A program made the position numbers and the translations under genes. DNA of 64,000 bases from Deltaproteobacteria bacterium (GTDB taxonomy: Bacteria > Desulfobacterota > Binatia > UTPRO1): contig JAJCZP010000221.1 in NCBI GenBank assembly GCA_029262315.1, positions 2,289-66,288 of the forward strand, in the 5' to 3' direction. This document shows positions 2,908 to 27,465 of the stretch, in pieces (within the stretch, counting starts at the first letter, position 1; each line of letters opens with the position of its first letter). The notes beneath the pieces were generated by a model. It had not been told where the DNA came from and made no database searches. It saw only the letters and a list, made by a program, of their open reading frames with translations.

Positions 2908-4899
2908 ATGTGCGGCATCGTAGGTTTCGTCGGCCTGCAAGCCTCGGCTGACGAGTATCCCGCGCGTCTCGAGCGCATGCTCGAGGTCATTCGCCACCGC
3001 GGCCCCGACGAATTCGGCTACTACTTCGATGATCACGTCGGGCTCGGCACCGCACGACTATCGATCATCGATCTCGCCAACGGCCAGCAGCCAATGGCCG
3101 ATTCATCGGGCCGCTACTGGATCGTATTCAACGGTGAGATCTTCAACTACCTCGAGCTTCGGACCGAGCTCGAAGCCGCGGGGCATCGCTTCGAGCGCAA
3201 CTCCGATACCGAGGTGTTGCTGCACGCCCTTCTCGAATGGGGCGAGGGTGCGCTCGGACGGCTCGACGGACAGTTCGCGTTCCTGTTCTACGACCGGCTG
3301 ACCAAACATGTTCTGGCGGCCCGTGATCCGTACGGCGAGCGGCCACTGCACTACGCGCCGGCGCGCGGCGGCGTCGCCTTCGGCTCCGAGATCAAGTCAC
3401 TCTTCACGCTCCCGGACGTCCGGCGCGCGCTGAACGAAACCGGGATTCGACACGCCTTTCAGTTCTGGACGCTGCTCCCCGGGGAAACCTGCTTCGACGA
3501 CGTGCGGTCCATTCCGCCCGGCCACTTCGCCCGAGTCGTCGACGGCGCGGTCACGGCAGTGGAACCCTACTACCGACTCCCGACCGAAGCGCGCGCGCCG
3601 ACCTCGAGCATCGACGAGTCGGCCGAACGCGTCCGCGAGCTGCTGACCCAGAGTGTGCATCGCCGCCTGCGCAGCGATGTGCCGGTCGGGACCTACCTAA
3701 GCGGCGGCGTCGACTCCACGATCATCACCTACCTCGCCCAGGAGGAGAGCCGGCACCAGGTTCAGAGCTTCTCGGTCTCCTTCAAAGACAAGGGCTACGA
3801 CGAGTCGAAGTATCAGACGATGGCGGCGGAACGGCTGGGCACGGATCATCATCCGTTCATGACGTCGCTCTCCGACATCGCCGACGGATTTCCCACCGCG
3901 ATCTGGCACGCCGAGACGGTGCTATTCCGCACTGCCCCCATCCCCCTGATGCTCCTGGCGCGGGAGGTGCACGCGTCGGGGTTCAAAGTCGTGCTGACCG
4001 GTGAGGGCGCCGACGAAGCGTTTCTCGGCTACGAGATCTTCAAGGAGACGCTCTTCCGGGAGCAGTACGATCAGTACGCCAACGACGACGAGCGCATCGC
4101 CGCGCTCCGGAAGCTCTACCCGTATCTCGCGCATTTCCAGGATGATCGCGCGCGCTCGGTCCTCGGGTTCTTCGCGCGCAATACCAAGAGCGATCTCCCC
4201 GGCCTCTTCTCGCATCACATCCGCTTTCAGAACGGCCTCCTCGGCCTGCGCTTGTTGAAGGGAAGCTACGACGACAAGCAGGCCGGCGCCGACTTCAGCC
4301 AAAGCCTGGAGACGTTGTACCCGGGCTTCACGTCGATGCCGTCCGTGCTCCGGGCGCAGATCCTCGAGTACACCACCCTTCTCGGCGGGTACCTGCTGTG
4401 CTCACAGGGCGACCGCATGTCGTCGGCACACAGCGTCGAGGCACGCTGTCCATTTCTCGAGAGGGATCTGGTCGAGTTCGCCTTCGGCCTTCCGCAGGAT
4501 ACCCGCCTGCACGAGGGCCGCGAGAAGCATGTGCTGCGTCAGGCGTTTGCCGACGTGCTGCCCGAAGAGCTCGTGGGACGCGAGAAGAATCCGTATCGCG
4601 CGCCGGACGCCAAGGCGCTCCTCCGCGATCCAGAAACAGAATGGCTCGCGGCGCTAAAGGCCGAGCACCTCGACGCCTGCGGGCTGATCGAGGGGGCACA
4701 CGCCCGCCAACTCCTCGATCGTGTGCAAAAGAAGGCGCCCGAAGCGATCAGTCCACGCGAAGATCAGGCCTGCGTGCTGGTGCTATCCCTCGCGCTCCTG
4801 AACGAGCGCTTCGTCGAGCACTTCCCGACGATCACGCCGGCACTTGGCGAGCGTTTGGTCGTCCGCATCGACGGACGCACACTCGGCGCGCTGGCGTAA
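2908..4899 (+). CDS. Asparagine-synthetase-family glutamine amidotransferase (AsnB-like, EPS-locus type)
   Basis: N-terminal MCGIVGF (Ntn Cys nucleophile), the LSIIDL motif, and the PP-loop SGGVDS in the synthetase domain. 663 aa. Confidence 0.9.
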   Translation: MCGIVGFVGLQASADEYPARLERMLEVIRHRGPDEFGYYFDDHVGLGTARLSIIDLANGQQPMADSSGRYWIVFNGEIFNYLELRTELEAAGHRFERNSDTEVLLHALLEWGEGALGRLDGQFAFLFYDRLTKHVLAARDPYGERPLHYAPARGGVAFGSEIKSLFTLPDVRRALNETGIRHAFQFWTLLPGETCFDDVRSIPPGHFARVVDGAVTAVEPYYRLPTEARAPTSSIDESAERVRELLTQSVHRRLRSDVPVGTYLSGGVDSTIITYLAQEESRHQVQSFSVSFKDKGYDESKYQTMAAERLGTDHHPFMTSLSDIADGFPTAIWHAETVLFRTAPIPLMLLAREVHASGFKVVLTGEGADEAFLGYEIFKETLFREQYDQYANDDERIAALRKLYPYLAHFQDDRARSVLGFFARNTKSDLPGLFSHHIRFQNGLLGLRLLKGSYDDKQAGADFSQSLETLYPGFTSMPSVLRAQILEYTTLLGGYLLCSQGDRMSSAHSVEARCPFLERDLVEFAFGLPQDTRLHEGREKHVLRQAFADVLPEELVGREKNPYRAPDAKALLRDPETEWLAALKAEHLDACGLIEGAHARQLLDRVQKKAPEAISPREDQACVLVLSLALLNERFVEHFPTITPALGERLVVRIDGRTLGALA

Positions 4900-5012
4900 C
4901 GCGGCTAGAGCACAAACTGACTGACCTGGAGGACGAGAACGCCCGGCTAAAACGCGTGGCCGCCGATCTCACGCTCGACAAGCACATGCTGGCCGGGCGC
5001 TGCGGAAAATGG
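4899..5012 (+). mobile_element. Relic of an IS3-family (IS407-group-like) transposase OrfA C-terminus. It has no start, no OrfB and no inverted repeats.
   Basis: In-frame translation RLEHKLTDLEDENARLKRVAADLTLDKHMLAGRCGKW matches the characteristic OrfA leucine-zipper end of IS407-like elements (..LEAENARLKKLLAEAMLDMHALKDVLGKKW). It is followed by a degenerate A-run (GGAAAATGG) where the -1 frameshift site would be. It lies in the convergent gap between the AsnB-like gene and the Cys-rich gene. Confidence 0.5.
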
Positions 5013-5096
5013 ACTAACGCCTGCCCGCCGGCGGGCGCTGGTGGGGTGGTATCAGGCGACGTTTCAGATCAGCGTGCACCGCGCCGCGCGGGGCCA

Positions 5097-6089
5097 TCAG
5101 CGACACGCCTCCGCGTCCGGGACGCACGTCGGCACACCGGCGAAGCCGAGGCCACCGTGGGCGGCGCACTCGGCCTGGCAGACGGTGGCGACGTCGGCGG
5201 CGAGACAGGCCTGGCCGTCGAGCGGGACGTCGCGACAGAGCTGGACGGTGGTGCTGTCGAGGCAGCGGCAGGTGACGCCGTGCGGGCCGTCGGCGATCGG
5301 GCGGTAGGCGTCGCTGGCGAGCAGGTGGCCGGTGCGGACGCTCGCCGCAATGGCGCACTCGGGAAGCGGCGTGCAGGTGCCGATCGCGCCGGCAGCGGCG
5401 CACTTGCGGGCGATCTGCTTGGCCGCGCGGGTGCGGGCCTTGTTGCCGGTGGCGAAGCACGCCGGCGTGAGCGGGCCGTCGGCGTCGCTGCCGGCCTTGA
5501 CGGCGGCGCGGTCGGTTCGGCGCTGGCAGGCGAGGCTCTGCGCCAGGACCTGGCCGACGATGCCCTTCACGCCACTGGCGACCGCGGCACGACACGCGCG
5601 GTCGTCGGCGCTCGCGGCGAGATCGGTGCCGCCGACGACGGTGGTCAGGAGCGCCTCGAGGCGGGGGAGGAGGCAGGGCGATCTATCCCCCAGGAGCGGG
5701 AAGCCCGGGTAGTTGGCGAGGACGGGAAGAGTGGGGCAGAGGTTCTCGAGCTTGGCGACCGCGCGGTTGAACTTGCGAGCGAAAGCGCCGCCGGGATCGA
5801 AGCAGGGTTGTCTATCACCTCCGCACGTGAGCACACCGCCGGCGACGGTACATTCGCTGAAGGCGTTGCACTGCGCGGTGGGGCCAAGCCGGCCCTCGCG
5901 GCGGTGGCAGGCGGCGGCGAGGCGGAGGCCCTGGAGGGTGCTCGCCTTGAGGGCGGTGCCGACGGCGTTCCGGCAGCGGAGGCAGGGGTCTCTCACGCCG
6001 CGTGCTACCTGCGCATGGGAGGTGGCCGGGGTCGTGAGCGCGAGAAGGAGCAGGGTGGCCGCGAGCGCCAGCGGTGTCCGGATCGTCAT
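5097..6089 (-). CDS. Secreted cysteine-rich protein; repeats of a helical Cys-containing module
   Basis: Start chosen at the internal ATG (6089), preceded by GAGGTGG and followed by the signal peptide MTIRTPLALAATLLLLALTTPATSHA. About 30 Cys. The modules CRNAVGTALKASTLQGLRLAAAC / CQRRTDRAAVKAGSDADGPLTPAC resemble the C-terminal domain of the 51230-53470 beta-helix protein. Confidence 0.6.
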   Translation of the reverse strand: MTIRTPLALAATLLLLALTTPATSHAQVARGVRDPCLRCRNAVGTALKASTLQGLRLAAACHRREGRLGPTAQCNAFSECTVAGGVLTCGGDRQPCFDPGGAFARKFNRAVAKLENLCPTLPVLANYPGFPLLGDRSPCLLPRLEALLTTVVGGTDLAASADDRACRAAVASGVKGIVGQVLAQSLACQRRTDRAAVKAGSDADGPLTPACFATGNKARTRAAKQIARKCAAAGAIGTCTPLPECAIAASVRTGHLLASDAYRPIADGPHGVTCRCLDSTTVQLCRDVPLDGQACLAADVATVCQAECAAHGGLGFAGVPTCVPDAEACR

Positions 6090-6316
6090 TGAGTGCCACC
6101 TCATGGGGATGGCGTCGAGCGGTCGGGGAGTCCCCGGTGTCCGCGGTCGGCGCATACGAAGGAGTCGGGACATGCGATGGAACAGTTGTTCCGCATCGAG
6201 GCTAGGGTGACGATCGGAACAGTCACGGGAGTCCCCGAGCACGTCGTGGTGTGCGTAAAGTTCTAGTCGTCGCTCCCAGCGCGCGAGTAGCAACCTATGA
6301 CAGATCCGGATCCGGG

Positions 6317-8110
6317 TTACTCGCCCAGCAGGAACGATCGCGCCATCGATGCCGCGACCCGCACGGCGAGCGTGGCGTTGTTCCAGGTCCAGGGCGAGGT
6401 CCGAACACGCGCGCCGTCGATCCAGGTCTCGACGACCTCGATCTCGTCCAGATCGTCAGCGGGCACGTCCAGCGGATTGCGCGACAGCACGACAAAGTCC
6501 GCGACCTTCCCCACGCGCAGCGATCCACGCTCCTCGTCCTCGAACATCTGCCACGCCGCATCGATGGTGAGCGCCTCGAGCCCTTCGTAGGTCGAGACGC
6601 GCTCCTCGGGTCCCAGGACCGTGTTGCCGTCGCGTGTCGTCCGTGTGACCGCCGTCCGGAGCGCGCGGAAGGGTCCGATGGGCGTCGCGGGATTGTCGGT
6701 GTGAATCGACGCCCGGTGTCCCGCACGGCGGGCCGAACCGAGCGGCATGAAGCGCGCCGCGCGAGTCTGCCCGACAATGTCGGGCAGACTCGCACCATAG
6801 AAATAGATGTGATCGATGAAGAAGCTCGGGGTGAGGCCCAGACGCTTGGCCCGGGCAAGTTGCGCGCCGGTGATCAAAGCGTTGTGCTCGAGGCGGTGCC
6901 GATGATCGTCGCGCGGCACCTCGGCAAGCACTTCGTCGAACACGTCCAGGGTGAGATCGATGGCGACCTCCCCCTGAACGTGCACCGCGATCTGCCTCCC
7001 GGCGGCGTGATGGCGTCGCACCTCATCGCGCAGGGCATCGTGCTCGTACATCACGTGCCCGCGATGGCCCGCGACCAACCCCATGCGCTCGCGCGTAAGG
7101 GCAGTATCACGGTACGGATCGGCGAACGCCGCCCCGCCGGTATAGGGCGAACCGTCGACGTACAGCTTCACGCCCTTGAGTGCGAAGCGTCGATGCGCGG
7201 GAGCCTCCGCGATCTCGGTCTCGAGCTGCGCCGGAAGCGCATACACCATGCTGCGGACCGGCGCCGATCCGGCGTCGGCGAGGCGCGCGTAGAGAGGGAT
7301 GGGGTTGTCGTTGCGCGCGCGGGCGCCGAGGACGCCGACGGTCGTGTAACCCGCCACGGCGTACTTCGCCTGCTGCAAGCTCAGCAGCAGCTCCAACGCG
7401 CCGGTTGGGGGCTCGGGCAGTCGGCCGAGAATAGCGTCGATCGCGCCCACTTCGTAGAGGACGCCGTTCAGCTCACCGGACGCGTCTTTTTGAAACTCGC
7501 CGCCCCCGCCAGGGGGAGGCGTCGTCTTGCTGATACCCACCTCCTCGTATCCGGCGGTGTTGATGTACGCCTGATGGAGCATCTGTGTCAGGACCAGCAT
7601 CGGACGCTCGGGGGCGATCTCGTCCAGCTCGGCCAGCGTCAGCGGAGAGAGATCGGGAACCATCACCGGGTCCCAACCGTACGCCAGAATCCAGTCGCCG
7701 ACCCAGGTCTCCTCGGCCGCAGCTCGGAGCGTCCCCATCACCGCCGCGCGCGACTCGTGGGTGAAGCCACTCACGTCGGCCATCTGGCCGAGGACCGCGG
7801 TGACGAGCGGATGTGCGTGCGCTTCGATCAGACCAGGAAGGAGCGCGCCGCCCGCAAGGTCGACGACTTTCGTCCCGGACACGCGGAGCCCGCGAATCTC
7901 CGCCTCGGCACCTATCGCCGCGATGCGGCCGTCGGTGACGGCCAGAGCCTCGAAGACGTCGCCCTCCCCCTCCATCGTGACGACCGCTCCGCCGACGAAG
8001 ATCGTGTCGACCGCGTACGCCTGAGACGCGAGGCACCCGAGCAACACACCGACGCACACCACCATCACCACTGTGCACCGTCCGCCCACCGAGCCTCGTC
8101 GCGCCATCAC
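6317..8110 (-). CDS. Metal-dependent amidohydrolase (Amidohydro_3-like), secreted/periplasmic
   Basis: Signal peptide MMARRGSVGGRCTVVMVVCVGVLLGCLASQAYA, then ..VDLAGGALLPGLIEAHAHP (metal-binding HxH). 597 aa. The start overlaps the upstream TetR stop (ATGA). Confidence 0.8.
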   Translation of the reverse strand: MMARRGSVGGRCTVVMVVCVGVLLGCLASQAYAVDTIFVGGAVVTMEGEGDVFEALAVTDGRIAAIGAEAEIRGLRVSGTKVVDLAGGALLPGLIEAHAHPLVTAVLGQMADVSGFTHESRAAVMGTLRAAAEETWVGDWILAYGWDPVMVPDLSPLTLAELDEIAPERPMLVLTQMLHQAYINTAGYEEVGISKTTPPPGGGGEFQKDASGELNGVLYEVGAIDAILGRLPEPPTGALELLLSLQQAKYAVAGYTTVGVLGARARNDNPIPLYARLADAGSAPVRSMVYALPAQLETEIAEAPAHRRFALKGVKLYVDGSPYTGGAAFADPYRDTALTRERMGLVAGHRGHVMYEHDALRDEVRRHHAAGRQIAVHVQGEVAIDLTLDVFDEVLAEVPRDDHRHRLEHNALITGAQLARAKRLGLTPSFFIDHIYFYGASLPDIVGQTRAARFMPLGSARRAGHRASIHTDNPATPIGPFRALRTAVTRTTRDGNTVLGPEERVSTYEGLEALTIDAAWQMFEDEERGSLRVGKVADFVVLSRNPLDVPADDLDEIEVVETWIDGARVRTSPWTWNNATLAVRVAASMARSFLLGE

Positions 8111-8721
8111 CGCCCCCCCTTCGTAGAGTCGCGCGCGAGGTAGCGCACGAGCACATCCGTGACTTCATCCACGAAATCGTCGTCCCCGAGGCGAGAGGCA
8201 TCGCGAACCGCGGTATCGTGCACGAGAGCCTCCGCAACTTGCAGGCTCACCGCCGCGGCAAGCGACAGGTTCGGGCGCCGCACTTCGTCACGATGGGCAG
8301 CCAGATAAGAAGCGATGAGTTGCTCGAGCATCGGACGCTCGTCGTCACGCGCCTCGGAGCTGACGGCGCTGTGCAAGGCCGCGTCTTCCGCATGCAGCGT
8401 GACCAGCACGCGAACCAGCCCAGCGATCGCCGCCGGCAATGGCTGGGCTCCGACGCGGCCGATCTCGGCGAAGAGACGCTCCCGGAAGGTCGCGTCGTAG
8501 CGACGGCGGACCTCCGCAAGAAGCTCTTCCTTGTGCGCGAAGTACTGGTACAGCGTACCGATCGAGACCCCGGCGCGTTCGGCGACGTGGTTGGTTGTCA
8601 GTCCCGCCAATCCATCTCTACTCAGAATCTGAGTAGTTGCTTGGATTATGATCTCTACCGTGTGTCGCGCGCGCGGCTGTATAGGCTTTCTTTGCGGAGT
8701 TCTTGCCTGTTTCGTGCGCAT
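8107..8721 (-). CDS. TetR-family transcriptional regulator
   Basis: HTH region ..LTTNHVAERAGVSIGTLYQYFAHKEELL. The first ATG is at 8721; the ORF-track upstream start is a TTG. Its stop overlaps the amidohydrolase start, suggesting cotranscription. Confidence 0.8.
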   Translation of the reverse strand: MRTKQARTPQRKPIQPRARHTVEIIIQATTQILSRDGLAGLTTNHVAERAGVSIGTLYQYFAHKEELLAEVRRRYDATFRERLFAEIGRVGAQPLPAAIAGLVRVLVTLHAEDAALHSAVSSEARDDERPMLEQLIASYLAAHRDEVRRPNLSLAAAVSLQVAEALVHDTAVRDASRLGDDDFVDEVTDVLVRYLARDSTKGGR

Positions 8722-8740
8722 GTCGCAGGTGAGCTTAATA

Positions 8741-8778
8741 CGAGTACCATATCCGAGCAATTACTCATATTGGTACAC
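8741..8778. promoter_or_regulatory. Imperfect inverted repeats in the low-GC divergent promoter region; candidate TetR operator
   Basis: GAGTACCATAT-ccgagcaat-TACTCATATTGGTAC (GAGTA/TACTC and GTACCATAT/ATATTGGTAC arms) in the 59-bp gap between the TetR gene (-) and the methyltransferase gene (+). Local GC is about 45% versus about 69% for the window. Confidence 0.3.
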
Positions 8779-8780
8779 AC

Positions 8781-9500
8781 ATGCCAATTGCCTCAACGCA
8801 AGTCAGACCACATGACCGGGCAAGCGTCGCGATCATCTGCACCCTGGGCCTCACCATCGCATTCGTGCTCACGGGGAACGCCGGCTGGGCGATCCTCGCA
8901 GGCATTGCCACCGTGGGGTTGGGCGTCGTCGCTCGCATCTTCAGCCGGCAGGCTCCCGGCCCAATGCCCCACAGATTCCGCGGCGTACTCTTCCTGCCGC
9001 GCGGCCCGCATTCCTCCGCCCACCTGCACCGCATCCTTGAGCCCCGAGCGGGCGAGCGGATCCTCGAGATCGGCCCCGGCGTCGGCATCCATGCGGTCCC
9101 CATGGCGGCGGCCCTGGTCCCGGGTGGCGTACTCGAAGCGATGGATGCGCAGGTAGCGATGCTCGCCGACCTCGAACACCGCGCGGATCGCGCCAGCGTG
9201 ACCAACATCGTCACGACGCAGGGCAACGCCCAGCGCCTCCCGTATGTCGATCGATCGTTCGACGCGGCGTACCTCATCGGCGTTCTGGGTGAGGTTCCTG
9301 ACGGTGACGCTGCGCTGCGCGAGCTGCGCCGCGTTCTCAAGCCCGACGGACGGCTGATCATCGGCGAAATGGTGCTCGACCCGGACTACGTGACGCTCTC
9401 GGCACTCACGCGGGCCGCAGAAAACGCCGGATTCCTCTTCGACCGACGCCAAGGACCGAAGGCGGCGTACTTCGCCCGCTTCGTGCCTGGCGACCGGTGA
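8781..9500 (+). CDS. Membrane-anchored class I SAM-dependent methyltransferase
   Basis: Two N-terminal hydrophobic helices (VAIICTLGLTIAFVL.., WAILAGIATVGLGVVA) followed by the SAM motif ILEIGPGVG. Divergent from the TetR gene. Confidence 0.75.
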   Translation: MPIASTQVRPHDRASVAIICTLGLTIAFVLTGNAGWAILAGIATVGLGVVARIFSRQAPGPMPHRFRGVLFLPRGPHSSAHLHRILEPRAGERILEIGPGVGIHAVPMAAALVPGGVLEAMDAQVAMLADLEHRADRASVTNIVTTQGNAQRLPYVDRSFDAAYLIGVLGEVPDGDAALRELRRVLKPDGRLIIGEMVLDPDYVTLSALTRAAENAGFLFDRRQGPKAAYFARFVPGDR

Positions 9501-10110
9501 GGGAGCCGGGCGGATCGCACGCGACGCGGCAATCACGGCGGCAGTTCTCGTTCGAAGCCGTGATCCGGGACCGCGATTCGCCAGCGGTGCGATCAGGCGA
9601 TGGCGTCTAGCGTAAGCCCGCGCTCGACTCTCGGACGAGACGGGAAGATGCGCTCGTGGTCGGCGCTCGAGGCGCCACTCGCGCGGGGTACGATCGCTCC
9701 AGGCTCGCGAGCGCGCTCGGATACTCCGTCGCGCGTACCCGGCGCGAATCGCCGGGCTCCGAACCCCAGCCGCGGGGCACTGCCAACGGCCCTCCTCGAA
9801 GACTTGGAACATCCAACCCGCTGATTGCTTATCAGCGTCACCGCGAGAGGCCCCGCCAATTCAGCCGCTTGCAATGGGCTGCTACCATGCCGCTACGGGG
9901 ACCACGCCGACATCACGGCTGCCACGGCGACTCTCCCTCTAGCGGACGGAGGCGCATAGGCTTCCACTCAGGCTCGACGCTCACGAAGCCGACCATGCGC
10001 CCGGAAGGTCAACTGGGGGTCGAACTACATGTGGGCGCTCAACGCAACGTCCCGGCTCGACTCCGAGCGCACCGGCGTAGCGCGTCCACGCACGGGCCGA
10101 CCAGCCCGCC

Positions 10111-11037
10111 TCACTCCTGCGTCTTGAACCGCACCGGCACCCGCGGTGTGTCATCCACCGCGAACGAGAAGACGTCCGGGCGCGAGTAGTGCCCGACGAC
10201 GTCGAAATCGAACTTGCCGCGGGCAACGTCGGCTAGGTCGATGTCGGCACGAAGGATCGCCTCCTCGTCGAATACCGGGCCCGCGTGGCACTCCCCGAGT
10301 GGCCCGTACACGGCGCTGCCGCCGCGTGAGAGGGTCGACCTCGGCTGCTCGCCGCCGGTGTCGATCTCGGCGCCCTCGGGGACGTACATGTTGCAACCGA
10401 TGACGAAACAGCGGCCCTCGAGGGCGATGTGCTGGAGGGTGGCCTGCCAGCCGGGGCGCGAGTCGGCGGTTGGTGCAATGTAGATCTCGACGCCCTGGGC
10501 GTACAGCGCCATTCGCGCGAGTGGCATGTAGCTCTCCCAGCAGACCAGCGCGCCGAGTTTTCCGATCTCCGTGGGAACGACCTTGAGGGTACTGCCGTCG
10601 CCCTCGCCCCAGATGTAGCGTTCGGCCGCTGTGGGCTTGAGCTTCCGGTGCTTGTGCAGCAACTCGCCGGTCGGAGAGAAGTAGAGAACCGTCGAGTACA
10701 GGGTACCTCGTCCGAACGACGAATCGCGTTCGACGATACCGACGACGACGAACGCACCGGCCTCTTTGGCGGCTTCCGCCATGCGCGCCGTCTCTGGACC
10801 CGGGACGTCGATGGCGCCGTCGTAGTAGCGCTGAAACAAACGCCGGCCCTCGGGCGTACGATCACCCACCACCGCGCCGAACTGCAGACCACGCGGATAC
10901 CCGCCGATGAAATTCTCCGGAAAGACGACGAGCTGGGTACCTGGTGTAGCCGCGCTCCGGAGCTTCGCACAGAAATGCTCGACACCGGCGGCCGCGTCGA
11001 AGAGCACGCCGGCCGCCTGGACGACGGCGATGTTCAC
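10111..11037 (-). CDS. Carbon-nitrogen hydrolase (nitrilase superfamily)
   Basis: Catalytic triad context VVFPENF (Glu), HRKLKPT (Lys), GALVCWESY (Cys). 308 aa. Last gene of a four-gene minus-strand operon. Confidence 0.85.
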   Translation of the reverse strand: MNIAVVQAAGVLFDAAAGVEHFCAKLRSAATPGTQLVVFPENFIGGYPRGLQFGAVVGDRTPEGRRLFQRYYDGAIDVPGPETARMAEAAKEAGAFVVVGIVERDSSFGRGTLYSTVLYFSPTGELLHKHRKLKPTAAERYIWGEGDGSTLKVVPTEIGKLGALVCWESYMPLARMALYAQGVEIYIAPTADSRPGWQATLQHIALEGRCFVIGCNMYVPEGAEIDTGGEQPRSTLSRGGSAVYGPLGECHAGPVFDEEAILRADIDLADVARGKFDFDVVGHYSRPDVFSFAVDDTPRVPVRFKTQE

Positions 11038-11073
11038 GGAGCGGCCTCCACCATCAGCGTCGGCCGCTCGTGG

Positions 11074-12093
11074 TCATGCCTCCAGATCACCTTCTTTGAG
11101 ATTGAGGTTCTCCATGATGTCCTCAACCTCTGCGGCCTCGGGAACCGCGTTCGCCTTGCCGAGGGCCTTCTCGCGGTCCATGAGGCCGTTCCGGACTAGC
11201 TCGGCAAGCTCGTTCACGTACGGGTTGAACCCGAACCGCTTCGAGTGCTGGAGGATGCCGAGATCGTTCAGGCGACAGTTGCTGCTGTTCCGGCCGGTAT
11301 CGGTCGGCATCTTCCACCCGAACTGCTTGATCTTCTCAATCACCATCTCCTCGCCGTACGGGACGGCGAGCAAGGGATTGATGACCGTCACCTGACGCAC
11401 CGACGACTCCTCGGGCAGCTGGAAGAACCGCGAGCCCTCATCGCCAAAGGCTTTCAGATAGCGCTCGGTGCTCCGCTGGCGCGTACGCCCAAGCGCGTCG
11501 AGATCGAGCTTCATCATCGCCGCGTCCTTCGGCACCTGCCCACCAATGTACCCGCCGACGATCACCTGGATGCCCCAGTGCGCGGCGAGCTTCACCATGA
11601 AGGTATTGATGATGTTGATACACGAGTTGCAGACGGCGCTCGCTCGCGTCACCGCGGCTTTCACATGCACGTCGCCGGTCAGGCTCGTCCGATACATGCT
11701 CTTCATGAACGTCGACGAGGGGCGGAAGAACATGTGGTCGACGCCGAGTGTGTCGGAGATGGCCTTGCAGTTCTCGATGGCGGTCGGGGACAGGAACGAG
11801 TTGTCGATAGTCACCGCGAGCGGGCGGACCTTGTACTCGTGCGCCATCAACCAGGTGACGTACGTGGAGTCCTTGCCGCCACTGTAGGCGACGATGCAGT
11901 CGTACTCCGACTTGCCACGCACCTGGTCGAACACCGCCTCGATCTGCCCGCGCAGCTCGGCGCGGATGCGGTTGAACTCGGGAATCGGCGGGGCCTTCTG
12001 ACAGTAGCTGCACACGCCCTCGGCATCGAACGAGATGTTCGGGAAGGTCTCGGGAAGAATGCAGCGGGTACACCTGCGCATGTCCTTGCTCAT
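11074..12093 (-). CDS. PP-loop ATP pyrophosphatase resembling N-acetyl-sugar amidotransferases (WbuX/WbpG/PseA-like)
   Basis: N-terminal double CxxC zinc ribbon CTRCILPETFPNISFDAEGVCSYC followed by the PP-loop AYSGGKDST. This architecture is typical of the LPS N-acetyl sugar amidotransferase family. Confidence 0.75.
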   Translation of the reverse strand: MSKDMRRCTRCILPETFPNISFDAEGVCSYCQKAPPIPEFNRIRAELRGQIEAVFDQVRGKSEYDCIVAYSGGKDSTYVTWLMAHEYKVRPLAVTIDNSFLSPTAIENCKAISDTLGVDHMFFRPSSTFMKSMYRTSLTGDVHVKAAVTRASAVCNSCINIINTFMVKLAAHWGIQVIVGGYIGGQVPKDAAMMKLDLDALGRTRQRSTERYLKAFGDEGSRFFQLPEESSVRQVTVINPLLAVPYGEEMVIEKIKQFGWKMPTDTGRNSSNCRLNDLGILQHSKRFGFNPYVNELAELVRNGLMDREKALGKANAVPEAAEVEDIMENLNLKEGDLEA

Positions 12094-12359
12094 GACGCGC
12101 CTTTCTGCTGGACAAGCTGGGCGAGCCCGGCAACGGATGCGAGCAGGTCCGACATGAGATCGTCGGGCTCGAGCTCGACGCCAAACTGCTCCTGGATGAA
12201 CGTAACGATCTCGATCACGCCGAAAGAATCGATCACTCCATTCTCGAAGAGGTCGCTGTCGTACGCAAGCGTCCCATCGGAGAACGAAACGAGAAACTTG
12301 TCTGCGATAAACTGGGCGAGGGCATCAGCCTCCCCACCGGTCTTCTTCAAGGTCTCCAC
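12090..12359 (-). CDS. Stand-alone acyl/peptidyl carrier protein
   Basis: 89 aa, acidic, with a phosphopantetheine-attachment-like GVIDSFGVIEIV (DS-F motif). Its stop overlaps the downstream PP-loop gene start by 4 nt. Confidence 0.7.
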   Translation of the reverse strand: METLKKTGGEADALAQFIADKFLVSFSDGTLAYDSDLFENGVIDSFGVIEIVTFIQEQFGVELEPDDLMSDLLASVAGLAQLVQQKGAS

Positions 12360-12389
12360 GACGTGTGTCCTCTCGGCCCAGCTGGGCGG

Positions 12390-13895
12390 TCAAGCGTCCC
12401 GCGGGCGCGCTTCCTGCTCTCGAAGCACGTGCCGACGCGGTTTCCCCAATTCGTTTCTGGGTATCTCATCAATCCATTCGAAGGCAACGGGGATCTTGTA
12501 CGGCTCGAGCTTCGGTCGCACGAAGCTCTCCAGCTCGTCAGCGCTCGGCAGCGGCCCCTGCGCCGACACCAGAAATGCCTTTACCCGCGAGCCAACGAGG
12601 GCTTGCGGGTCTTCGATGCCGATACACGCGGCCTCCTGTACGGCCGGGTGACTGGCGAGCACGTCTTCGATCTCCACGGGTGCCACCTTGTGTCCACCAA
12701 CGTTGATGATGTCACCCGCTCGGCCAAGAAGATAGGCGTATCCTGTGTCGTCTATCCGCCCCAAGTCGCCAGTGTTGAGCCATTCTTCCTCGCGCCGCCC
12801 GATGCCGTCGGCCGTCCAGGTTGCGGTCGAGACGTGATCCCCTTGGACCACGATCGCGCCCGCCTCATTGGGCGGCAGGACACTACCGGCCTCGTCGAGG
12901 ATCGCCAGCGTCACGTTCGGTGAGGCCCGCCCGACCGAGTCCAGCCGGTCGGCTGACTCGTGAAACTCGATGAAACAGGAGCGCGAGCCCTCGGTCAGAC
13001 CGTAGTGCATGCAGATGCGCGTGGTCGGTAGGAGCTCCATCAGCAGGTGCTTGTCCTCGGTGGGCATCGGAGCGCTGCCGATCTCGATATAGCGAAGCTG
13101 TCCCGCGTACTCCGACAGGGCGTTGCCGGTCATCCGCTTCAGGAGCGCCCACGCGGCGGGGACGAAGCTGAAGCCGGTGGCATGCCAAGTCTCAAGGGCC
13201 GCGAAGATGCGCTTCGGAAACATGAAACCCTGCACCAGCACGAGAGTGCCGCCCGCGAACAGCTGGCAACGCATGCGTCCCAGTCCGAAAGAATGGTTGA
13301 GAGGGAGCGCCAGCACCTCGACATCCGAGGTGTCGTTGCCAACGAACGCGTTGATGTTCCGTGCGGCGGCGCACTGATTGCCGTGCGTGATGATCGTGCC
13401 CTTCGGCGTCCCCGTGGTGCCACTGGTGAGGAGAATGTCGGCGTGCGTGTCCGGAGTCGGAAATGCCGATGGCGCGCCGTCGTCGGGGCCTGGGGTCGTG
13501 GGGAAGTCGGCCAGGGGCACGACGCGGCATGCAGGCTCGACGCCCTTCTTGACGACCGCCGGACAAAAAACTGTTGGACGAATCAGCTCTATGGTGGCCG
13601 CCAACTGGTCCGGCGACATTTTCGGCGTGATCGGAACCGCCGTGGCGTGGACGCGATGGGTCGCCAGGTAGGCGATCACGAACTCGAGCGAGTTGGTACC
13701 GGCAAGCAGCACGCGATCCCCCGCCGATACGCCGGCTTCTCGCAGGACCTGCGCCCCAACACCGACGGCCGCTTGCAGTTCCCGGTACGAAAGGACCTGT
13801 TCGCCGCTGACCACCGCGGGGTGCTCCGGGCGTTCCTGTGCCCAGGCTGCAAGCTGTCCGATCAGGGATGTCGCACGTGTCTCTTGGTGGCCCAT
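12390..13895 (-). CDS. AMP-dependent synthetase/ligase (adenylate-forming enzyme; acyl-CoA or acyl-ACP ligase)
   Basis: LTSGTTGTPKG AMP-binding P-loop plus C-terminal ..GRAGDIINVGGHKVAPVEIE... 501 aa. First gene of the operon; a low-GC promoter region lies upstream. Confidence 0.9.
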   Translation of the reverse strand: MGHQETRATSLIGQLAAWAQERPEHPAVVSGEQVLSYRELQAAVGVGAQVLREAGVSAGDRVLLAGTNSLEFVIAYLATHRVHATAVPITPKMSPDQLAATIELIRPTVFCPAVVKKGVEPACRVVPLADFPTTPGPDDGAPSAFPTPDTHADILLTSGTTGTPKGTIITHGNQCAAARNINAFVGNDTSDVEVLALPLNHSFGLGRMRCQLFAGGTLVLVQGFMFPKRIFAALETWHATGFSFVPAAWALLKRMTGNALSEYAGQLRYIEIGSAPMPTEDKHLLMELLPTTRICMHYGLTEGSRSCFIEFHESADRLDSVGRASPNVTLAILDEAGSVLPPNEAGAIVVQGDHVSTATWTADGIGRREEEWLNTGDLGRIDDTGYAYLLGRAGDIINVGGHKVAPVEIEDVLASHPAVQEAACIGIEDPQALVGSRVKAFLVSAQGPLPSADELESFVRPKLEPYKIPVAFEWIDEIPRNELGKPRRHVLREQEARPRDA

Positions 13896-14005: not shown

Positions 14006-14035
14006 TTGACGCATCATCTCCCGGCCGCGCATAAT
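14006..14035 (+). promoter_or_regulatory. Sigma70-like promoter candidate for the giant secreted-protein gene
   Basis: TTGACG, an 18-nt spacer, then CATAAT, in a low-GC gap, about 90 nt upstream of the AAGGAG RBS and ATG at 14123. Confidence 0.3.
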
Positions 14036-14122
14036 CTGCCCCGTGCCGATTCTCCACTAGGGGTCCCACCACTGCGCGGAGCGCGCACAGATCGAGCTGA
14101 TCAGTTAAGGAGTACACGGGAG

Positions 14123-17100
14123 ATGTCGAATCCGCTGTCGCGGCAACGCTGGGTCGTCGGCGTACTTTTCACCGCATTCTACGTTGCTGTCGCTGCCCCC
14201 GCTGGCGCCGTGACGCGCGCGTGCGGACCCGACGCGATCGCCAATACGAACGACGTGCTGTGCGCGGCCCCAAGCGGCCCCTGCAATGGAGTCTCGGTGG
14301 TCGTCAGCACGGCCATCGAGATTCCCGACGGCGTGCCCTGCAACTTCGACCTTGGTGGCCGTGATCTGACCTTCGACCGCACGATTGAAGTGACCGGGAG
14401 ATTCGGCGCTCTGAACGGCGTGATTCGTGTGTTCAACGCCCAGAACATCACCGTCAGCGACACGGGAAAATTGAAGGCACAGGGCGACTTCGTCCAGCCA
14501 GCTGGCTTCATCACCGGCGGCGGCCTGATCTCGCTGGACGCCTCCGGTGATATCTTCCACGAAGGCGTGATGGACGTCACTGGCGATAGTGCCGGAACCA
14601 TCATCCTCGACGCCGCGGGCGAAGTGCAGATCCTCAACAACTCCGAGCTGACCGGCAACGGGCTGAGTTCGTTTCTCGACGAGGGCGAGCGCTTCGCGGA
14701 CGGCGGCACCCTCGATATCACCGCGGGCGCGGGCGACATCACGATCAACGGCGATATCTCCATGCGCGGCTCCAACCAGGCCACCGGAGGCACGCTCACC
14801 TTCCAGGCCGCCAAGAGCGTCTTCCTGAACAAAGCCATCGACATGTCGGGCGGCGGCGGCGACGGCGGTGCGCTCGAGGTAGAAGCGGGTGACCACATCA
14901 CCATCAGTAAAACGATCGATGGCGTCAGCCGCGCGGGAGCCGGCTTCGGCGGATCGGTGCTCCTATTCGCCGGTGAGGACGGTCTCGGCGGCGTGGTCCC
15001 CGGCGGCAACCTCGATGTCGACAGCGCGAGCATCAAGCTGCAGGGCAGCTCCACCGACGAGTTCGGAGGTGACGGCGGCGAAGTCGACATCGCGGCAGCA
15101 GGCAACGTCCGGTTCTTCGGCTCGGGTGTCTCCATTCGCGTCGACGCCGCGACCAACTGGGATGGCTCCGGGGGAACCGTCGCGATCGATACGGGAGACT
15201 CGAAACCGAGTACGATCGGCCCGACCGATGGCAACATCGAAATCGATGGCCTGATCTCCGCCCGGGGCGGCGACCTGGACAGCAGTGGTGGGGAGATCGA
15301 TCTCAGCGCTGGGGCCGATCTGATCATCACGGCGGACATCGACCTCAGCGCAAAGGATACCGGGGGCGATCTCACCGGCGATGCTGGCGGCGCGATCCTC
15401 CTCGACGGCGTGATCTCGGCCCCCGCGACCGATAGCGCGGGCGAGGGCGGCTTCATTGACCTGATTGCCGGCGTCGCGTCCGACGCGACGCTCACGGTGT
15501 CCAAGAATATCCTCGCGCCCGGCGGCGCGACGAGTAGCAGTGGACAGAACATCTCGCTGTCGGCATGCACACTCGTCGTCGATGACAACACCAGGGTGGA
15601 TGGCCAGGGCGGCGTCAGCCTCGGTGGCGCCGAGGGCGGCGCCGACATCGATCTCATCTCGCGCCGGCCCATGCAGCTGGGGTCCGACTCGCGATTTCTC
15701 GCGGGCCCGGGAGGATCGGTCGTTGCCACGTACCCTCCAGGACAAGATCCCGTGATCGGCTCCGGTGTCACCTTCGCCCCACCGCTCTTCACCAACATCA
15801 ATCCCGTGGGGGCCTATCCGAACTGCCCCGTCTGCGCTGATGGCATCCTGCAATCAGGCGAGGTCTGCGATCCCGGGCTCGACGCCTGCTGCAATCCGAC
15901 CTGTAACGGCTTCATCTGCCCCACGCCCACGGTCACGCCCATCCCCACAACGACCCCAACCACGACTGTCGGGGGTCCGACTGCCACCCCAACCGTGACG
16001 GCGACACCGACGACGACCGTCACCCCGACGACGACCAGCACACCGATCGCTACGGCGACCACGACACCGACGGCCACGACGACGGCGACGCCACTCGCGA
16101 CGGCTACGAGCACTGCGACGGCCACGGCGACGCCAATCGCGACGCCCACCGCGACGGCCACCATCACGGTGAACCCCACCGCCACCGCGACGCCCGTTCC
16201 CACCGGCACGCCCACGGCAACGGCGACGCCCGTCCCGACGAGCACGGCCACTCCCGGTGTGAGCACTCTCGATCACTACAAATGCTACAAATCCAAAACA
16301 GCCGCGGGCACCGAAGCGCTGGCGCAACTGGAAATCCTGCTGGCCGATGCGTTCGAGACCAAGCTCACCAAGATCCGGAAGACACGCGAGATCTGCACCG
16401 CCACCGATGTCGATGGCGAGGTCATCAACGACCCGACGGCACACTTGCAGTGCTTCACCGTCAAGGACGTCGCTGGCCAGGCGAACTTCCAACGCCGCGA
16501 CATCGAGGTCGAGAATCGTTTCGGTCCGCAGACCTTCACGGCGCGCAAGCTCCGGCGCATGTGCATGCCCGCCGTGCTCGACGCCGCGCCCTCGCTCCTG
16601 AACATCGACGCCATGAAGTGCTACACGGCGAAGACCGCCTCGGGCACGCCAAACTTCACGTCGCTAGAAGCCACGCTCACCGATCGGTACGAGTCGAAGC
16701 TGACGCGTATTCTCAAGGTGGAGAGTTTCTGCCAAGCCGTCGAGGTCGGCGGCCAGCCTACGCTCAACCCCGCGGCCGAGCTGCACTGCTACAAAATTCG
16801 TGATGCCGCGGGTCAGCCCAAATTCAACCGGCTCGAGGCGGGCGCGGAGAGTGGTTTGGGCGCGGAGGTCGTGAGCGTACAGAAGCCAACCGCGTTGTGT
16901 GTGCCCTCGACACGCGTGGCTCCTCCAGCGTGCGGCGATGGCACCGTCGATCCCGGCGAGCAATGCGACGACGGCAACACCGATCCGGGCGACGGCTGCG
17001 ATGATCTCTGCAGACTCGAGCAGTGTGGCGACGGCCAGCTGCAGCCCGGCGAAGGCTGCGATGATGGCGCCGCGAACGGCACCAACGATTGCTGCACGAC

Positions 17101-17809
17101 GATCTGCCAGCTGGTCGATCCCGACGGCGACGGCGTCTGCAGCCGCGATGATGCCTGCCCGGCCGACGCCGACAACGATAGCGACAGTGACGGATTCTGC
17201 GTTGGGACCTCGTTCCAGCCCCCGGCCATCGGCGGTGACGACCCGTGCTCACGCCCCGCGACACCGTGGATCAAGCCGAAGGCCACGTTCAGCAAACTCG
17301 ATCGCGTCGCCGGCCAGCACAAGTTCACGATCAAGGGCGAGTTCGTCGTACCGACGGGGGGCCTCGCGGTCGCGCCGCAGGCGCGCGGCGTCCATCTGCG
17401 CGTCGTCGACAACGCCGGCACGCTCATCATCGACGAACGCATTCCCGGCGGGTTCTTCTCGCAGGCCACAGGTGTGGGCTGGAAACTGGGCGGCAACCCG
17501 ACGAACAAGTGGACGTACATCGACAAAACGAGACCGCCGCTGCTCGCCGGCATCAACAAACTCCAGGTTCAGGATCGGTCGAACAAGCAACCGGGCCAGT
17601 TCAAGGTCTCGATCGCCGGCCGGCAAGGCGCCTATGCACTCGCGCCTGGCCAAGAGCCCATCACGATCGCAGTCGAGTTCAACGACACGGGCATCCCGCC
17701 AGGTGGCACGGTGGGCGTCGACCAATGCGCCGAGCTGACGTTCGATCTGTTGCCGATCCGTCCCGGGTGCGGCTTCAACGGGCGAGCCAACAAACTCGGC
17801 TGCAAGTAG
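14123..17809 (+). CDS. Giant secreted multidomain adhesin-like protein. Order of parts: beta-helix-like Gly-rich repeats, Pro/Thr linker, two HYxCY modules, two Myxococcus-type Cys-rich repeats, TSP3-like Ca-binding repeats, C-terminal domain.
   Basis: RBS AAGGAG then ATG 14123, with signal peptide [31 protein letters not shown]. Repeats are [27 protein letters not shown] and [24 protein letters not shown], plus [28 protein letters not shown]. 1228 aa. Confidence 0.85.
15921..16258 (+). repeat. Low-complexity coding repeat (ACN/CCN/GCN codons) encoding the Pro/Thr/Ala linker
   Basis: Encodes [114 protein letters not shown] inside the 14123-17809 CDS. Confidence 0.7.
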
Positions 17810-26410: not shown

Positions 26411-27358
26411 GTGCTCGCACTACACTTCGACGGCTCACAGGCCCGCACGATCGATCTCCCACTCCCGCAGACGACGGCCGATACAGCCGTCGTCCGCGTC
26501 TCGCTTGCCGGGGTATGCAATACCGATCTCGAGCTCGTGAAGGGCTATATGGGATTCCGTGGCATCCTCGGTCATGAGTTCGTCGGCGTCGTAGAAGACG
26601 GGCCCGCGCAATGGTGCGGCCGGCGGGTGGTGAGCGAGATCAATTTCGCCTGCGGGCGTTGCGAGAGCTGCAACCGTGGTCTCGAACGCCACTGCCCGGC
26701 GCGAACCGTCATGGGCATTCTCGGGGCGGACGGCGCGTTTGCCGAGTATGTACGGGTTCCGGTGCGGAATCTCCACACGGTGCCCGACACTCTCGGCGAC
26801 GAACGCGCGGTCTTCAGTGAGCCCCTCGCCGCGGCCTTTGAGATTCTGCAGCAAGTCACGATCGATCCCGGTAGCGAGTGCGTCGTCCTGGGCGACGGCA
26901 AACTCGGACTGCTCGTGGCTCAGGTCCTCGCCGATGCCGGCGCGCGTGTTCTCGCGGTCGGCCACCATCCCGAGCGACTGGCGCTGCTCGCTCGCCGGGG
27001 CGTCGCAACCGTCCTTGCCGCGGATTGGACACCCATCCCGTTTCCATTGGTCGTCGAGGCGACGGGCAGCGCCACGGGCTTCGCCCTCGCCGTCGCGGCC
27101 ACCCGTCCGCGCGGCACCCTGGTTCTCAAGAGCACCTACGCCGACAATCCGCGGGTCGATCTCGCACCCATCGTCATCAACGAGATTCAGGTCCTCGGCT
27201 CGCGCTGCGGCCCCTTTTCTCCCGCGATCGACGCCCTCGCCGCGTCTCGCATCGATGTCGAAGGTCTGATTACCGACCGGGTCCCGCTCGCTCAGGGCCC
27301 GGCGGCCCTCGAGGCCGCCGCCAGCGGCGCCTCAAAAATTTTGATCGAAGTCGCGTAA
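26411..27358 (+). CDS. Zinc-dependent alcohol dehydrogenase (MDR superfamily, threonine/sorbitol-DH-like)
   Basis: GVCNTDLELVKGYMG..GHEFVGVVE and the structural-Zn Cys cluster CGRCESCNRGLERHC. GTG start at 26411 behind AAGG. The ORF-track start at 26216 runs through an Arg-rich leader unlikely to be coding. Confidence 0.75.
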   Translation: MLALHFDGSQARTIDLPLPQTTADTAVVRVSLAGVCNTDLELVKGYMGFRGILGHEFVGVVEDGPAQWCGRRVVSEINFACGRCESCNRGLERHCPARTVMGILGADGAFAEYVRVPVRNLHTVPDTLGDERAVFSEPLAAAFEILQQVTIDPGSECVVLGDGKLGLLVAQVLADAGARVLAVGHHPERLALLARRGVATVLAADWTPIPFPLVVEATGSATGFALAVAATRPRGTLVLKSTYADNPRVDLAPIVINEIQVLGSRCGPFSPAIDALAASRIDVEGLITDRVPLAQGPAALEAAASGASKILIEVA

Positions 27359-27465
27359 ACCCGCTTGATCCAGCCCCTCCGATCTATGGTACTTCTACCA
27401 CTGGCTGCCGGCACCAGCCGCTGTCGCACCACCAACCACAGACCAAACGTCCTTCTGGGGGGCAC

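Follow-up and report, generated by a model that had tools for sequence, protein, structure and literature searches.

The window analyzed here is a 64,000-nucleotide stretch of contig JAJCZP010000221.1 from a Deltaproteobacteria bacterium of the Binatia lineage (assembly GCA_029262315.1, positions 2,289 to 66,288 of the forward strand). It contains a quartet of tightly packed genes on the minus strand, encoding an AMP-forming ligase, a stand-alone acyl carrier protein (ACP), a PP-loop ATP pyrophosphatase, and a CN-hydrolase. The quartet had been described in an earlier note, made from the letters of the sequence, and all four open reading frames (ORFs) are present at the coordinates given there (Table 1). 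The junctions are also as described, with a 30-nt gap between the ligase and ACP genes, a 4-nt overlap (ATGA) between the ACP and PP-loop genes, and a 36-nt gap between the PP-loop and CN-hydrolase genes. All four starts have a purine-rich, ribosome-binding-like sequence upstream. The GC content at third codon positions (GC3) of the ORFs is 0.76–0.87 in a genome of 65% GC, which argues that these are real genes. No Rfam or tRNA features were found.

Profile searches against Pfam and NCBIfam agree with the four family assignments of the earlier note at the superfamily level. The ACP has a modifiable serine, Ser45, within the motif IDSFG, and the E-K-C triad of the CN-hydrolase (E41, K132, and C166) is intact, as had been noted. 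The reported absence of HisH/HisF-like (WbuY/WbuZ) ammonia donors is borne out as well, with none among the neighbors scanned in the window. The quartet is viewed here, tentatively, as belonging to a larger unit of seven genes, of which it is one half; this unit would assemble a modified acyl group on a carrier protein and then pass it on.

Table 1. The seven genes of the unit, with their positions in the window
Feature	Position	Strand	Length	Assignment
AMP-forming ligase	12390-13895	minus	501 aa	AMP-binding (4.8e-64) and AMP-binding_C
ACP (stand-alone)	12090-12359	minus	89 aa	PP-binding (2.9e-07)
PP-loop ATP pyrophosphatase	11074-12093	minus	339 aa	SGGKDS; N-terminal Zn ribbon; CxxC...C triad
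NIT4-type nitrilase (CN-hydrolase)	10111-11037	minus	308 aa	CN_hydrolase (1.3e-51)
AsnB-like glutamine-dependent amidotransferase	2908-4899	plus		Asn_synthase (1.3e-85) and GATase_7; MCG nucleophile and SGGVDS intact
GT4 glycosyltransferase	1683-2906	plus		Glycos_transf_1 (1.4e-36)
Tandem-GNAT-fold protein	569-1582	plus	337 aa	AlphaFold2 (AF2) fold; candidate acyl-ACP-dependent N-acyltransferase

The PP-loop protein, for which about 2,700 homologs were found, had been labeled WbuX-like, and this label holds in that the top NCBIfam model is indeed TIGR03573 (WbuX), at 157.2 bits. The score is below the curated cutoff of the model (203.2 bits), however, and an AMDH-type domain embedded in a nonribosomal peptide synthetase (NRPS) of Xanthomonas albilineans scores nearly as high (145.9 bits). 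An assignment to QueC or to a tRNA-modifying enzyme was considered and rejected, as the matches are weak (26–29 bits for QueC, including 28.6 bits for the Pfam QueC model, and 26 bits for LarE) and the gene context is thiotemplated. The PP-loop (SGGKDS, residues 71–76) is present, together with the tetracysteine zinc motif of the N-acetyl-sugar amidotransferases (NASATs), C8/C11/C28/C31, which has been described for the Legionella enzyme LpNASAT. These four cysteines, the segment from Ser71 to Ser76, and three further cysteines (C155, C158, and C273) show no variation across 22 homologs.

The three additional cysteines set the window protein apart from the sugar amidotransferases compared here. 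In an alignment of 45 family members, including four proteins that are named NASATs by the NCBI annotation pipeline (PGAP), C155/C158/C273 are invariant in the stand-alone, carrier-linked proteins and in the AMDH domains, and are also found in several other relatives. The triad is missing from all four of the PGAP-named NASATs. The SxNC motifs are common to the window protein and the AMDH domains. The CxxC...C triad is probably an Fe-S site. The AF2 model of the protein has a pLDDT of 92. Its top structural match is the Legionella NASAT (8wex), with a TM score of 0.69 and 18% identity, and this is followed by the [4Fe-4S] enzymes TtuA, LarE, and NcsA.

At the sequence level, the window protein shares 29–31% identity, over 290–309 columns, with the PP-loop domains that are inserted in NRPS adenylation domains, as compared to 22–25% with the PGAP-named sugar amidotransferases. 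Such embedded forms are found at three of the loci (L016, L042, and L070). The embedded homolog in X. albilineans has 941 residues, with the PP-loop domain between the adenylation and thiolation domains, and this architecture is as described for AlbIV. A neighbor-joining tree with bootstrap was calculated, using PGAP-named NASATs from plasmids as the outgroups after the initial outgroups proved not to be true NASATs. The window clade groups with the acyltransferase clade (99% bootstrap), and the AMDH domains form a group of their own (100%). All the stand-alone, carrier-linked proteins are joined with 61% support, and the AMDH domains are placed as their sister with 38.5%.

The gene context of the homologs was surveyed by exact-protein look-ups, which are the main source of context, by two collection scans, which contributed few close loci, and by tblastn with the window proteins. 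The counts given here are for the 20 loci in which the PP-loop homolog reaches 31% identity and the flanking DNA is sufficient, very short contigs having been left out. An AMP-ligase, an ACP, or an NRPS adjoins the PP-loop gene in all 20 loci. An AsnB-like gene adjoins it in 17, the exceptions being L015, L038, and the NRPS locus L042. The conserved set, among homologs of 31–96% identity, is made up of an ACP, the PP-loop protein, an AsnB-like amidotransferase, and a loader, which is either a ligase or a FabD-like acyltransferase. The earlier note had taken the CN-hydrolase to be the nitrogen partner and had set the AsnB-like protein aside; it is the latter that recurs. The cassette is seen in loci from Binatia, Polyangiaceae, Bacillus, Paenibacillus, Desulfobacterium/Thermodesulfobacteriota, Gemmatimonadota, and Sedimentisphaerales.

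The coupling between the carrier protein and the PP-loop protein is especially tight. The ACP gene is located directly upstream of the PP-loop gene, with a gap of 0–50 nt or an overlap of 4 nt, in 11 loci with 32–96% identity (L001, L003, L004, L006, L007, L039, L041, L063, L064, L066, and L068). The 4-nt overlap of the window is also found in L001, L004, L063, L064, and L066. In other loci, the ligase gene is positioned between the ACP and PP-loop genes, or the ACP gene is kilobases away. The earlier note had suggested, as one option, that a carrier-bound acyl group might be amidated or amidinated. The target seems well chosen, since the PP-loop enzyme probably acts on a carrier-bound acyl group, in view of the ACP adjacency and of its characterized relatives (PMC7966384, PMC6772006). 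Amidination is not the favored reaction.

The second half of the unit is located 5.2 kb from the quartet in the window (Table 1). Its genes had been mentioned in the earlier note as a nearby AsnB/GT4/'FemAB' trio, and they are relevant here, as members of the conserved unit to which the quartet belongs. All seven genes form a single unit, consisting of two convergent operons with a variable spacer between them, because the two halves abut in L001, L064, and L065, and because the flanks of the window and of a sister genome (L066) match around unrelated spacers. Both flanks in L066 are collinear with those of the window, with 85–89% identity, and they enclose an unrelated 5.9-kb insert in place of the 5.2-kb spacer. 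The gene order in L001, L064, and L065 is GT4, ligase, ACP, and PP-loop, followed by the nitrilase in L064 and L065 only, and this operon is convergent with AsnB. The GT4 gene is thus directly upstream of the ligase gene in these three loci, and beside AsnB in L066 and the window.

As a description of the fold, the 'FemAB' label of the 337-aa protein is correct; the fold is that of a tandem GNAT. The protein falls into no sequence family, with no Pfam or NCBIfam match. Only 8 homologs are found among 5.8 billion proteins. The AF2 model has a pLDDT of 84 and matches the tandem GNATs 2hv2, Eis, and 2wpx (from the clavulanate pathway), with E values of about 1e-10 to 1e-8. A tandem GNAT adjoins AsnB in L001 (46% identity) and in L066 (by 89% DNA collinearity). 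A 352-aa ORF follows AsnB at the equivalent position in L064 and is known by its place and length alone. The 338-aa gene after AsnB in L004 gives a weak match to the window protein in hhalign (52% probability), and no link between the two was found by tblastn.

More distant cassettes are found in quite different surroundings. The clade with 47–54% identity, to which two Polyangiaceae metagenome-assembled genomes (MAGs) and a Deltaproteobacteria MAG belong, has the ACP and PP-loop genes first, then a gene-sized gap, and AsnB after it. The Paenibacillus elgii locus has electron transfer flavoprotein (ETF) alpha/beta subunits, ACP, ligase, PP-loop, a radical S-adenosylmethionine (SAM) enzyme, AsnB, an acyl-CoA dehydrogenase, and an NRPS module with condensation, adenylation, and thiolation domains. 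A plasmid of the cultured strain Bacillus thuringiensis HD1002 (L068, NZ_CP009349.1, 318071–342979) has the core cassette in a cluster resembling type II fatty acid synthases (FAS) or polyketide synthases (PKS). The order there is alpha/beta hydrolase, ACP, PP-loop (annotated as QueC), two adenylating enzymes, two carrier proteins, ketosynthase (KS), thioesterase (TE), FabZ, a protein resembling chain length factor (CLF), FabG, AsnB, phosphopantetheinyl transferase (PPTase), and a radical SAM enzyme. This locus is a tractable system for experiments. The PEP-CTERM/XrtA exopolysaccharide (EPS) system was considered as a relative of the window unit and rejected; GT4, AsnB, and the ligase score far below the respective cutoffs (114/409, 367/817, and 218/592), and the likeness is one of gene content only.

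The closest structural homolog of the CN-hydrolase in the Protein Data Bank (PDB), as found with phmmer, is Arabidopsis NIT4 (6i00), with an E value of 2.6e-95, a score of 322 bits, and 54% identity over 300 residues (residues 4–307). Other nitrilases and cyanide dihydratases in the PDB score at most 175 bits. The top NCBIfam match is the Nit6803 nitrilase (212 bits), as compared to 17.4 bits for the NAD synthase model. On these scores, the CN-hydrolase is classified as a branch-1, NIT4-type nitrilase, and not as a NadE-type glutaminase. The split NadE-like module of the earlier note, with the CN-hydrolase as its glutaminase, is rejected on these scores and on the absence of the nitrilase from L001 and from the distant loci surveyed.

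The distribution of the nitrilase is much narrower than that of the cassette. Among the loci surveyed, the pairing of nitrilase and PP-loop genes is found only in the window, L063, L064, L065, and L066/L067. The position of the nitrilase gene, with either a 4-nt overlap or a 36-nt gap, is kept in five related genomes, where the PP-loop proteins are 71–96% and the nitrilases 67–94% identical to those of the window. It is kept even where the adjoining DNA has been replaced. The 4-nt overlap with the PP-loop gene is observed in L064. In L065, the overlap is with a frame holding a PP-loop remnant. The PP-loop gene of this locus (8988–10004) is apparently disrupted, with a 174-aa gene called and a tblastn match that covers residues 140–338; no such damage is seen in the nitrilase or the other genes, and the disruption may reflect either a pseudogene or a fault of the assembly.

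The nitrilase is missing from L001, a Candidatus Binatia locus with a 75% identical PP-loop protein, where the ligase, ACP, and PP-loop genes are all present. No nitrilase homolog was found by tblastn in about 60 more distant loci either. The pairing is therefore confined to a narrow clade, and the quartet described in the earlier note is not conserved beyond it. Two of the four closest non-identical homologs of the nitrilase (94% and 72% identity) could be located, and both are directly downstream of a PP-loop gene, in L066/L067 and L065. The other two (91% and 67%) agree in protein length with the nitrilases of L063 and L064. In similarity to the window protein, the in-operon nitrilases come before all other homologs (a ranking by similarity, not a tree). 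The family is common outside this operon, with 8000 matches, and the homologs with 65% identity or less (those with 62–65% were inspected) are in an unrelated context, with genes for a TPR protein, an alpha/beta hydrolase, the nitrilase, and an aminotransferase, and no PP-loop gene. Because the nitrilase is missing from L001 and the distant loci, and its context changes from 65% identity down, it is best seen as a recent addition, drawn from a common lineage of bacterial nitrilases and restricted to this clade.

By its motifs, the AMP-ligase belongs with the acyl-CoA ligases and not with the amino-acid adenylation domains, and it is predicted to load the ACP. The motif at the A4 position is LNHSFG instead of FDxS, while the A3 motif is TSGTTGTPKG and the A10 lysine is kept. 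Its top relatives of known structure are FadD5 and malonyl-CoA synthetase MatB, with scores of 165–182 bits, and oxalyl-CoA ligase scores 135–163 bits. In the sister clade with 47–54% identity, the loader slot is occupied by a FabD-like acyltransferase gene with no ligase (L003 and L004). The slot is an unannotated, gene-sized gap in L006, L007, L009, and L035. The acid loaded by the ligase is probably a malonate-like dicarboxylate, because the enzyme is without FDxS, its relatives include malonyl-CoA synthetase, and the alternative loader is FabD-like.

Taken together, these observations suggest that the unit modifies an ACP-bound amide, probably into a nitrile, and that a NIT4-type nitrilase has become attached to it. 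We assign a probability of about 0.4 to this reading. On homology and gene context, the ligase would load onto Ser45 of the ACP a malonate-like acid that keeps another carboxylate free; in sister lineages, this step would fall to the FabD-like acyltransferase. The AsnB-like enzyme would then convert the free carboxylate to a primary amide, using glutamine and ATP. The PP-loop enzyme would adenylate the amide oxygen of the ACP-bound substrate, and elimination of AMP would give the nitrile, as in AMDH with carrier-bound asparagine. The tandem GNAT may move the finished acyl group onto an amine, probably that of a glycoconjugate made with GT4. The nitrilase, which would not be an ammonia donor, may hydrolyze free cyano-acid that has escaped from the carrier, for detoxification or salvage, or it may trim the released product.

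In all the characterized relatives of the PP-loop enzyme, a carbonyl oxygen is first adenylated, and AMP then leaves by displacement or elimination. The product is an amidine in NASAT, a thioamide in CtaC, and a nitrile in AMDH, QueC, and PesC. The nitrile is favored for the window enzyme because the recurrent AsnB-like partner would give a primary amide, which readily eliminates once it is adenylated, and because AMDH shows that the cysteine triad is compatible with dehydration. Moreover, a nitrile can be formed without an ammonia donor, and none of the HisH/HisF type is present among the neighbors scanned. The recruitment and translational coupling of a NIT4-type nitrilase in this clade also point to a nitrile. 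The route from acid through amide to nitrile is established for ATP pyrophosphatases, in QueC and in the asparagine synthetase-like (AS-like) enzyme PesC (PMC13060819).

Several points weigh against this assignment. Every step of the pathway, the substrate included, is deduced from sequence and from analogy with known enzymes. The triad would fit sulfur insertion, as in CtaC, equally well. The AsnB-like protein could catalyze both the amidation and the nitrile-forming steps alone, as PesC does, and the PP-loop protein would then have another role. A nitrile-producing enzyme beside a nitrilase looks futile, unless the nitrilase acts only on a free by-product. The nitrilase is missing from most of the cassettes, so it is not essential to the core chemistry. 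The GT4 and GNAT proteins are linked to the acyl-ACP by neighborhood alone. Finally, the position of AMDH as the nearest outgroup of the stand-alone group, at 38.5% bootstrap, is a lead and not a result.

The main rival to the nitrile is a thioamide. In this case, a CtaC-type [4Fe-4S] PP-loop enzyme would adenylate the ACP-bound amide and swap its oxygen for sulfide, the thioamide would be primary if AsnB had made the amide, and the nitrilase would be a passenger. The positions of the triad are almost identical to those of the Fe-S ligands in CtaC, and the window protein, like CtaC, is stand-alone and is predicted to depend on a carrier protein. The next structural matches after NASAT include the sulfur-inserting [4Fe-4S] enzymes TtuA and NcsA, together with LarE. 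NRPS-cluster proteins of P. elgii are listed among CtaC's 100 closest homologs (PMC6772006), which is consistent with the cassette found here beside an NRPS in P. elgii, and the CtaC cluster is likewise without a sulfur-mobilizing gene. Overall, we nonetheless consider a thioamide unlikely. The AMDH domains carry the triad and yet dehydrate their substrate instead of thionating it. CtaC acts on secondary (peptide) amides, and there is no AsnB in its cluster, whereas an adenylated primary amide readily gives a nitrile, the general chemistry of QueC, PesC, and AMDH. The translationally coupled nitrilase would be left unexplained. The CtaC fragments CFFCGR and SSGCKLG differ from the family motifs CNSCIN and SSNCRLN, although the fragments were rebuilt from mutagenesis primers and are imperfect in homopolymer runs. 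In addition, the closest clades (Binatia, Polyangiaceae, Chloroflexota, and Flavobacteriaceae) are from lineages that are believed to be largely aerobic.

The remaining explanations are less probable still. The quartet may not be a single pathway, with the nitrilase as a housekeeping neighbor and the ligase, ACP, and PP-loop proteins in some other thiotemplated role, such as an isomerization of the AMDH-aminomutase kind or the adenylation of a carboxylate for ligation. The nitrilase family is indeed very common elsewhere, AMDH also converts Asn to isoAsn, and PP-loop enzymes (NadE, AsnB, and QueC) adenylate carboxylates as well as amides. A chance neighbor would not be expected to keep its position in five related genomes, even beside replaced DNA, nor would the in-operon nitrilases be expected to rank above all other homologs in similarity, and we regard this explanation as quite improbable. 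Least probable of all is an amidotransferase of the WbuX kind, for which the reaction would be amide to amidine, either on a sugar or on an ACP-bound acyl group, with ammonia from the CN-hydrolase (the split NadE arrangement) or from the glutaminase domain of the AsnB-like protein. Its best arguments are the top WbuX match (157 bits), the top structural match to the Legionella NASAT, including the tetracysteine zinc site, the linked GT4 and acyltransferase genes, as in polysaccharide loci, and the fact that some PGAP-named NASATs adjoin asnB and not hisH/hisF2. Against these stand the WbuX score under the cutoff, the missing triad in the four NASATs aligned, and the tight coupling to an ACP, which is without counterpart in sugar amidotransferase loci. 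The identity of the CN-hydrolase (54% to NIT4, and 17 bits against NAD synthase) and its absence from L001 and from all the more distant cassettes surveyed also disagree with such a reaction.

If a carrier-bound nitrile is the product, a broader proposal can be framed, although we hold it to be doubtful as a whole. It would be a new thiotemplated route to cyano-acyl groups, with a dicarboxylate on a free ACP, amidation by AsnB, dehydration by a stand-alone Fe-S PP-loop enzyme, N-linking to a glycoconjugate by a new tandem-GNAT family, and self-protection by a NIT4-type nitrilase. The PP-loop enzyme would be a stand-alone ancestor or cousin of AMDH and CtaC, and the ACP/PP-loop/AsnB core would be a portable nitrile (or thioamide) module in NRPS, type II PKS/FAS, and glycoconjugate clusters of many phyla.

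The spacer between the two halves of the unit in the window (4907–10107) looks like a hotspot of insertion or replacement. It contains an ORF on the minus strand (5097–6293) with a GC3 of 0.85 and no Pfam or NCBIfam match, for which an internal Met would give a signal peptide and a cysteine-rich mature region. This is followed by an Amidohydro_3 hydrolase that has a 4-nt overlap with a TetR regulator (6317–8760, minus strand), and by a convergent SAM methyltransferase beside this pair (8781–9500, plus strand), all of which are absent from L066. The spacer of L066 has instead DUF3604, a rotamase, HupE/UreJ, and a 320-aa ORF. On the other side of the quartet, divergent from the ligase, is a 1267-aa protein with a DUF4215 cysteine-rich repeat (14006–17809, plus strand). 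This protein is kept in L066, as are a 402-aa protein of no assigned function, a short-chain dehydrogenase/reductase (SDR), and a TetR regulator downstream of it. Further away, an RTX calcium-binding repeat protein (26878–28950, plus strand; HemolysinCabind, 1.8e-30) is unrelated to the cassette.

The installation of nitriles or thioamides on carrier-bound intermediates is known from few systems, namely AMDH, CtaC, and PesC. From the present survey, a free-standing version seems to be widespread, occurring together with an AsnB-like partner and an ACP in biosynthetic clusters of very different kinds, and the link with a nitrilase in this clade is a concrete clue to the product. If the proposal is true, the cassette is a handle for genome mining and a candidate biocatalyst for the cyanide-free synthesis of nitriles. 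The labels 'QueC', 'TilS', and 'sugar amidotransferase' that such PP-loop proteins carry at present are misleading. Homologs of CtaC in many thiotemplated clusters were already noted by Dunbar et al. (2019), and many homologs of AMDH by Gross et al. (2021). In the searchable literature, no description was found of the ACP/PP-loop/AsnB core as a recurrent cassette, of its version with GT4, a tandem GNAT, and a nitrilase, or of the triad as a divider from the sugar amidotransferases.

A comparison with known systems can be made for each part of the unit. The combination of a CN-hydrolase with a PP-loop ATP pyrophosphatase is reminiscent of NadE. In the window, however, the CN-hydrolase is of the nitrilase branch, the PP-loop protein is not NadE-like, and the pairing is confined to one narrow clade. 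The nitrilase itself resembles plant NIT4, a beta-cyano-L-alanine nitrilase/hydratase, in its sequence and its E-K-C triad, and an activity toward cyanoalanine may be proposed by analogy only. Unlike the plant enzyme, it is bacterial and is encoded in a thiotemplated operon rather than being part of cyanide detoxification. For the AsnB-like protein, a precedent is OxyD of oxytetracycline biosynthesis, which carries out an AsnB-like amidation for the malonamate starter unit. PesC, an AS-like enzyme, amidates a carboxylate and then makes the nitrile with a second ATP (PMC13060819). Both systems are without a separate PP-loop enzyme of the present type, a nitrilase, and a GT4/GNAT pair.

The overall fold, the PP-loop, and the tetracysteine zinc site are shared with the NASATs (WbuX/WbpG/PseA, TIGR03573, and 8wex). 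The gene neighbors are different, however. Two of the four NASAT controls (L071 and L073) are paired with HisH and AglZ/HisF2, and none of the four has an ACP neighbor. Two PGAP-named NASATs on plasmids of Agrobacterium and Azospirillum (L069 and L072) are located beside asnB, not hisH/hisF2, which hints that true sugar amidotransferases, too, may have AsnB-like enzymes as partners. A distant relative of the PP-loop protein in Pandoraea terrigena (L019, 9866–13144) has a WbuX score of 98 bits and keeps the triad. It adjoins a cyclophane-forming radical SAM/SPASM maturase and a collagen-like repeat protein, which suggests a branch of the family linked to RiPPs (peptides made by the ribosome and modified after translation).

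CtaC, the thioamide synthetase of the closthioamide pathway, is an adenine nucleotide alpha-hydrolase with a [4Fe-4S] cluster; it stands alone and takes its substrate only when this is bound to a peptidyl carrier protein (PMC6772006). Its residues D77/S78, C154, C157, and C284 correspond to D75/S76, C155, C158, and C273 of the window protein, a comparison of published positions and not of fully aligned sequences (PMC6772006). As in CtaC, the window enzyme has a three-cysteine motif downstream of the PP-loop, a putative [4Fe-4S] site, and a dedicated carrier protein is encoded beside it. In contrast, the amides thionated by CtaC are secondary peptide amides, and no AsnB-like enzyme, nitrilase, GT4, or GNAT is found in its cluster.

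The AMDH domain of CysH, from the cystobactamid pathway, converts L-Asn bound to a thiolation domain to beta-cyano-L-alanine or to isoasparagine, and a homolog is found in AlbIV of the albicidin pathway (PMC7966384). CysH is dark brown when purified (PMC7966384). The window protein shares with these domains the SGGKDS motif, the N-terminal zinc ribbon, and the CxxC...C triad, with 29–31% identity over about 300 residues. AMDH converts a carrier-bound primary amide to a nitrile, and by analogy the window enzyme is predicted to do the same. AMDH is located inside an NRPS adenylation domain and acts on the L-Asn that this domain loads. In comparison, the window protein is free-standing, with 339 residues, and is accompanied by a separate ACP, a loader of the acyl-CoA-ligase type, and an AsnB-like enzyme.

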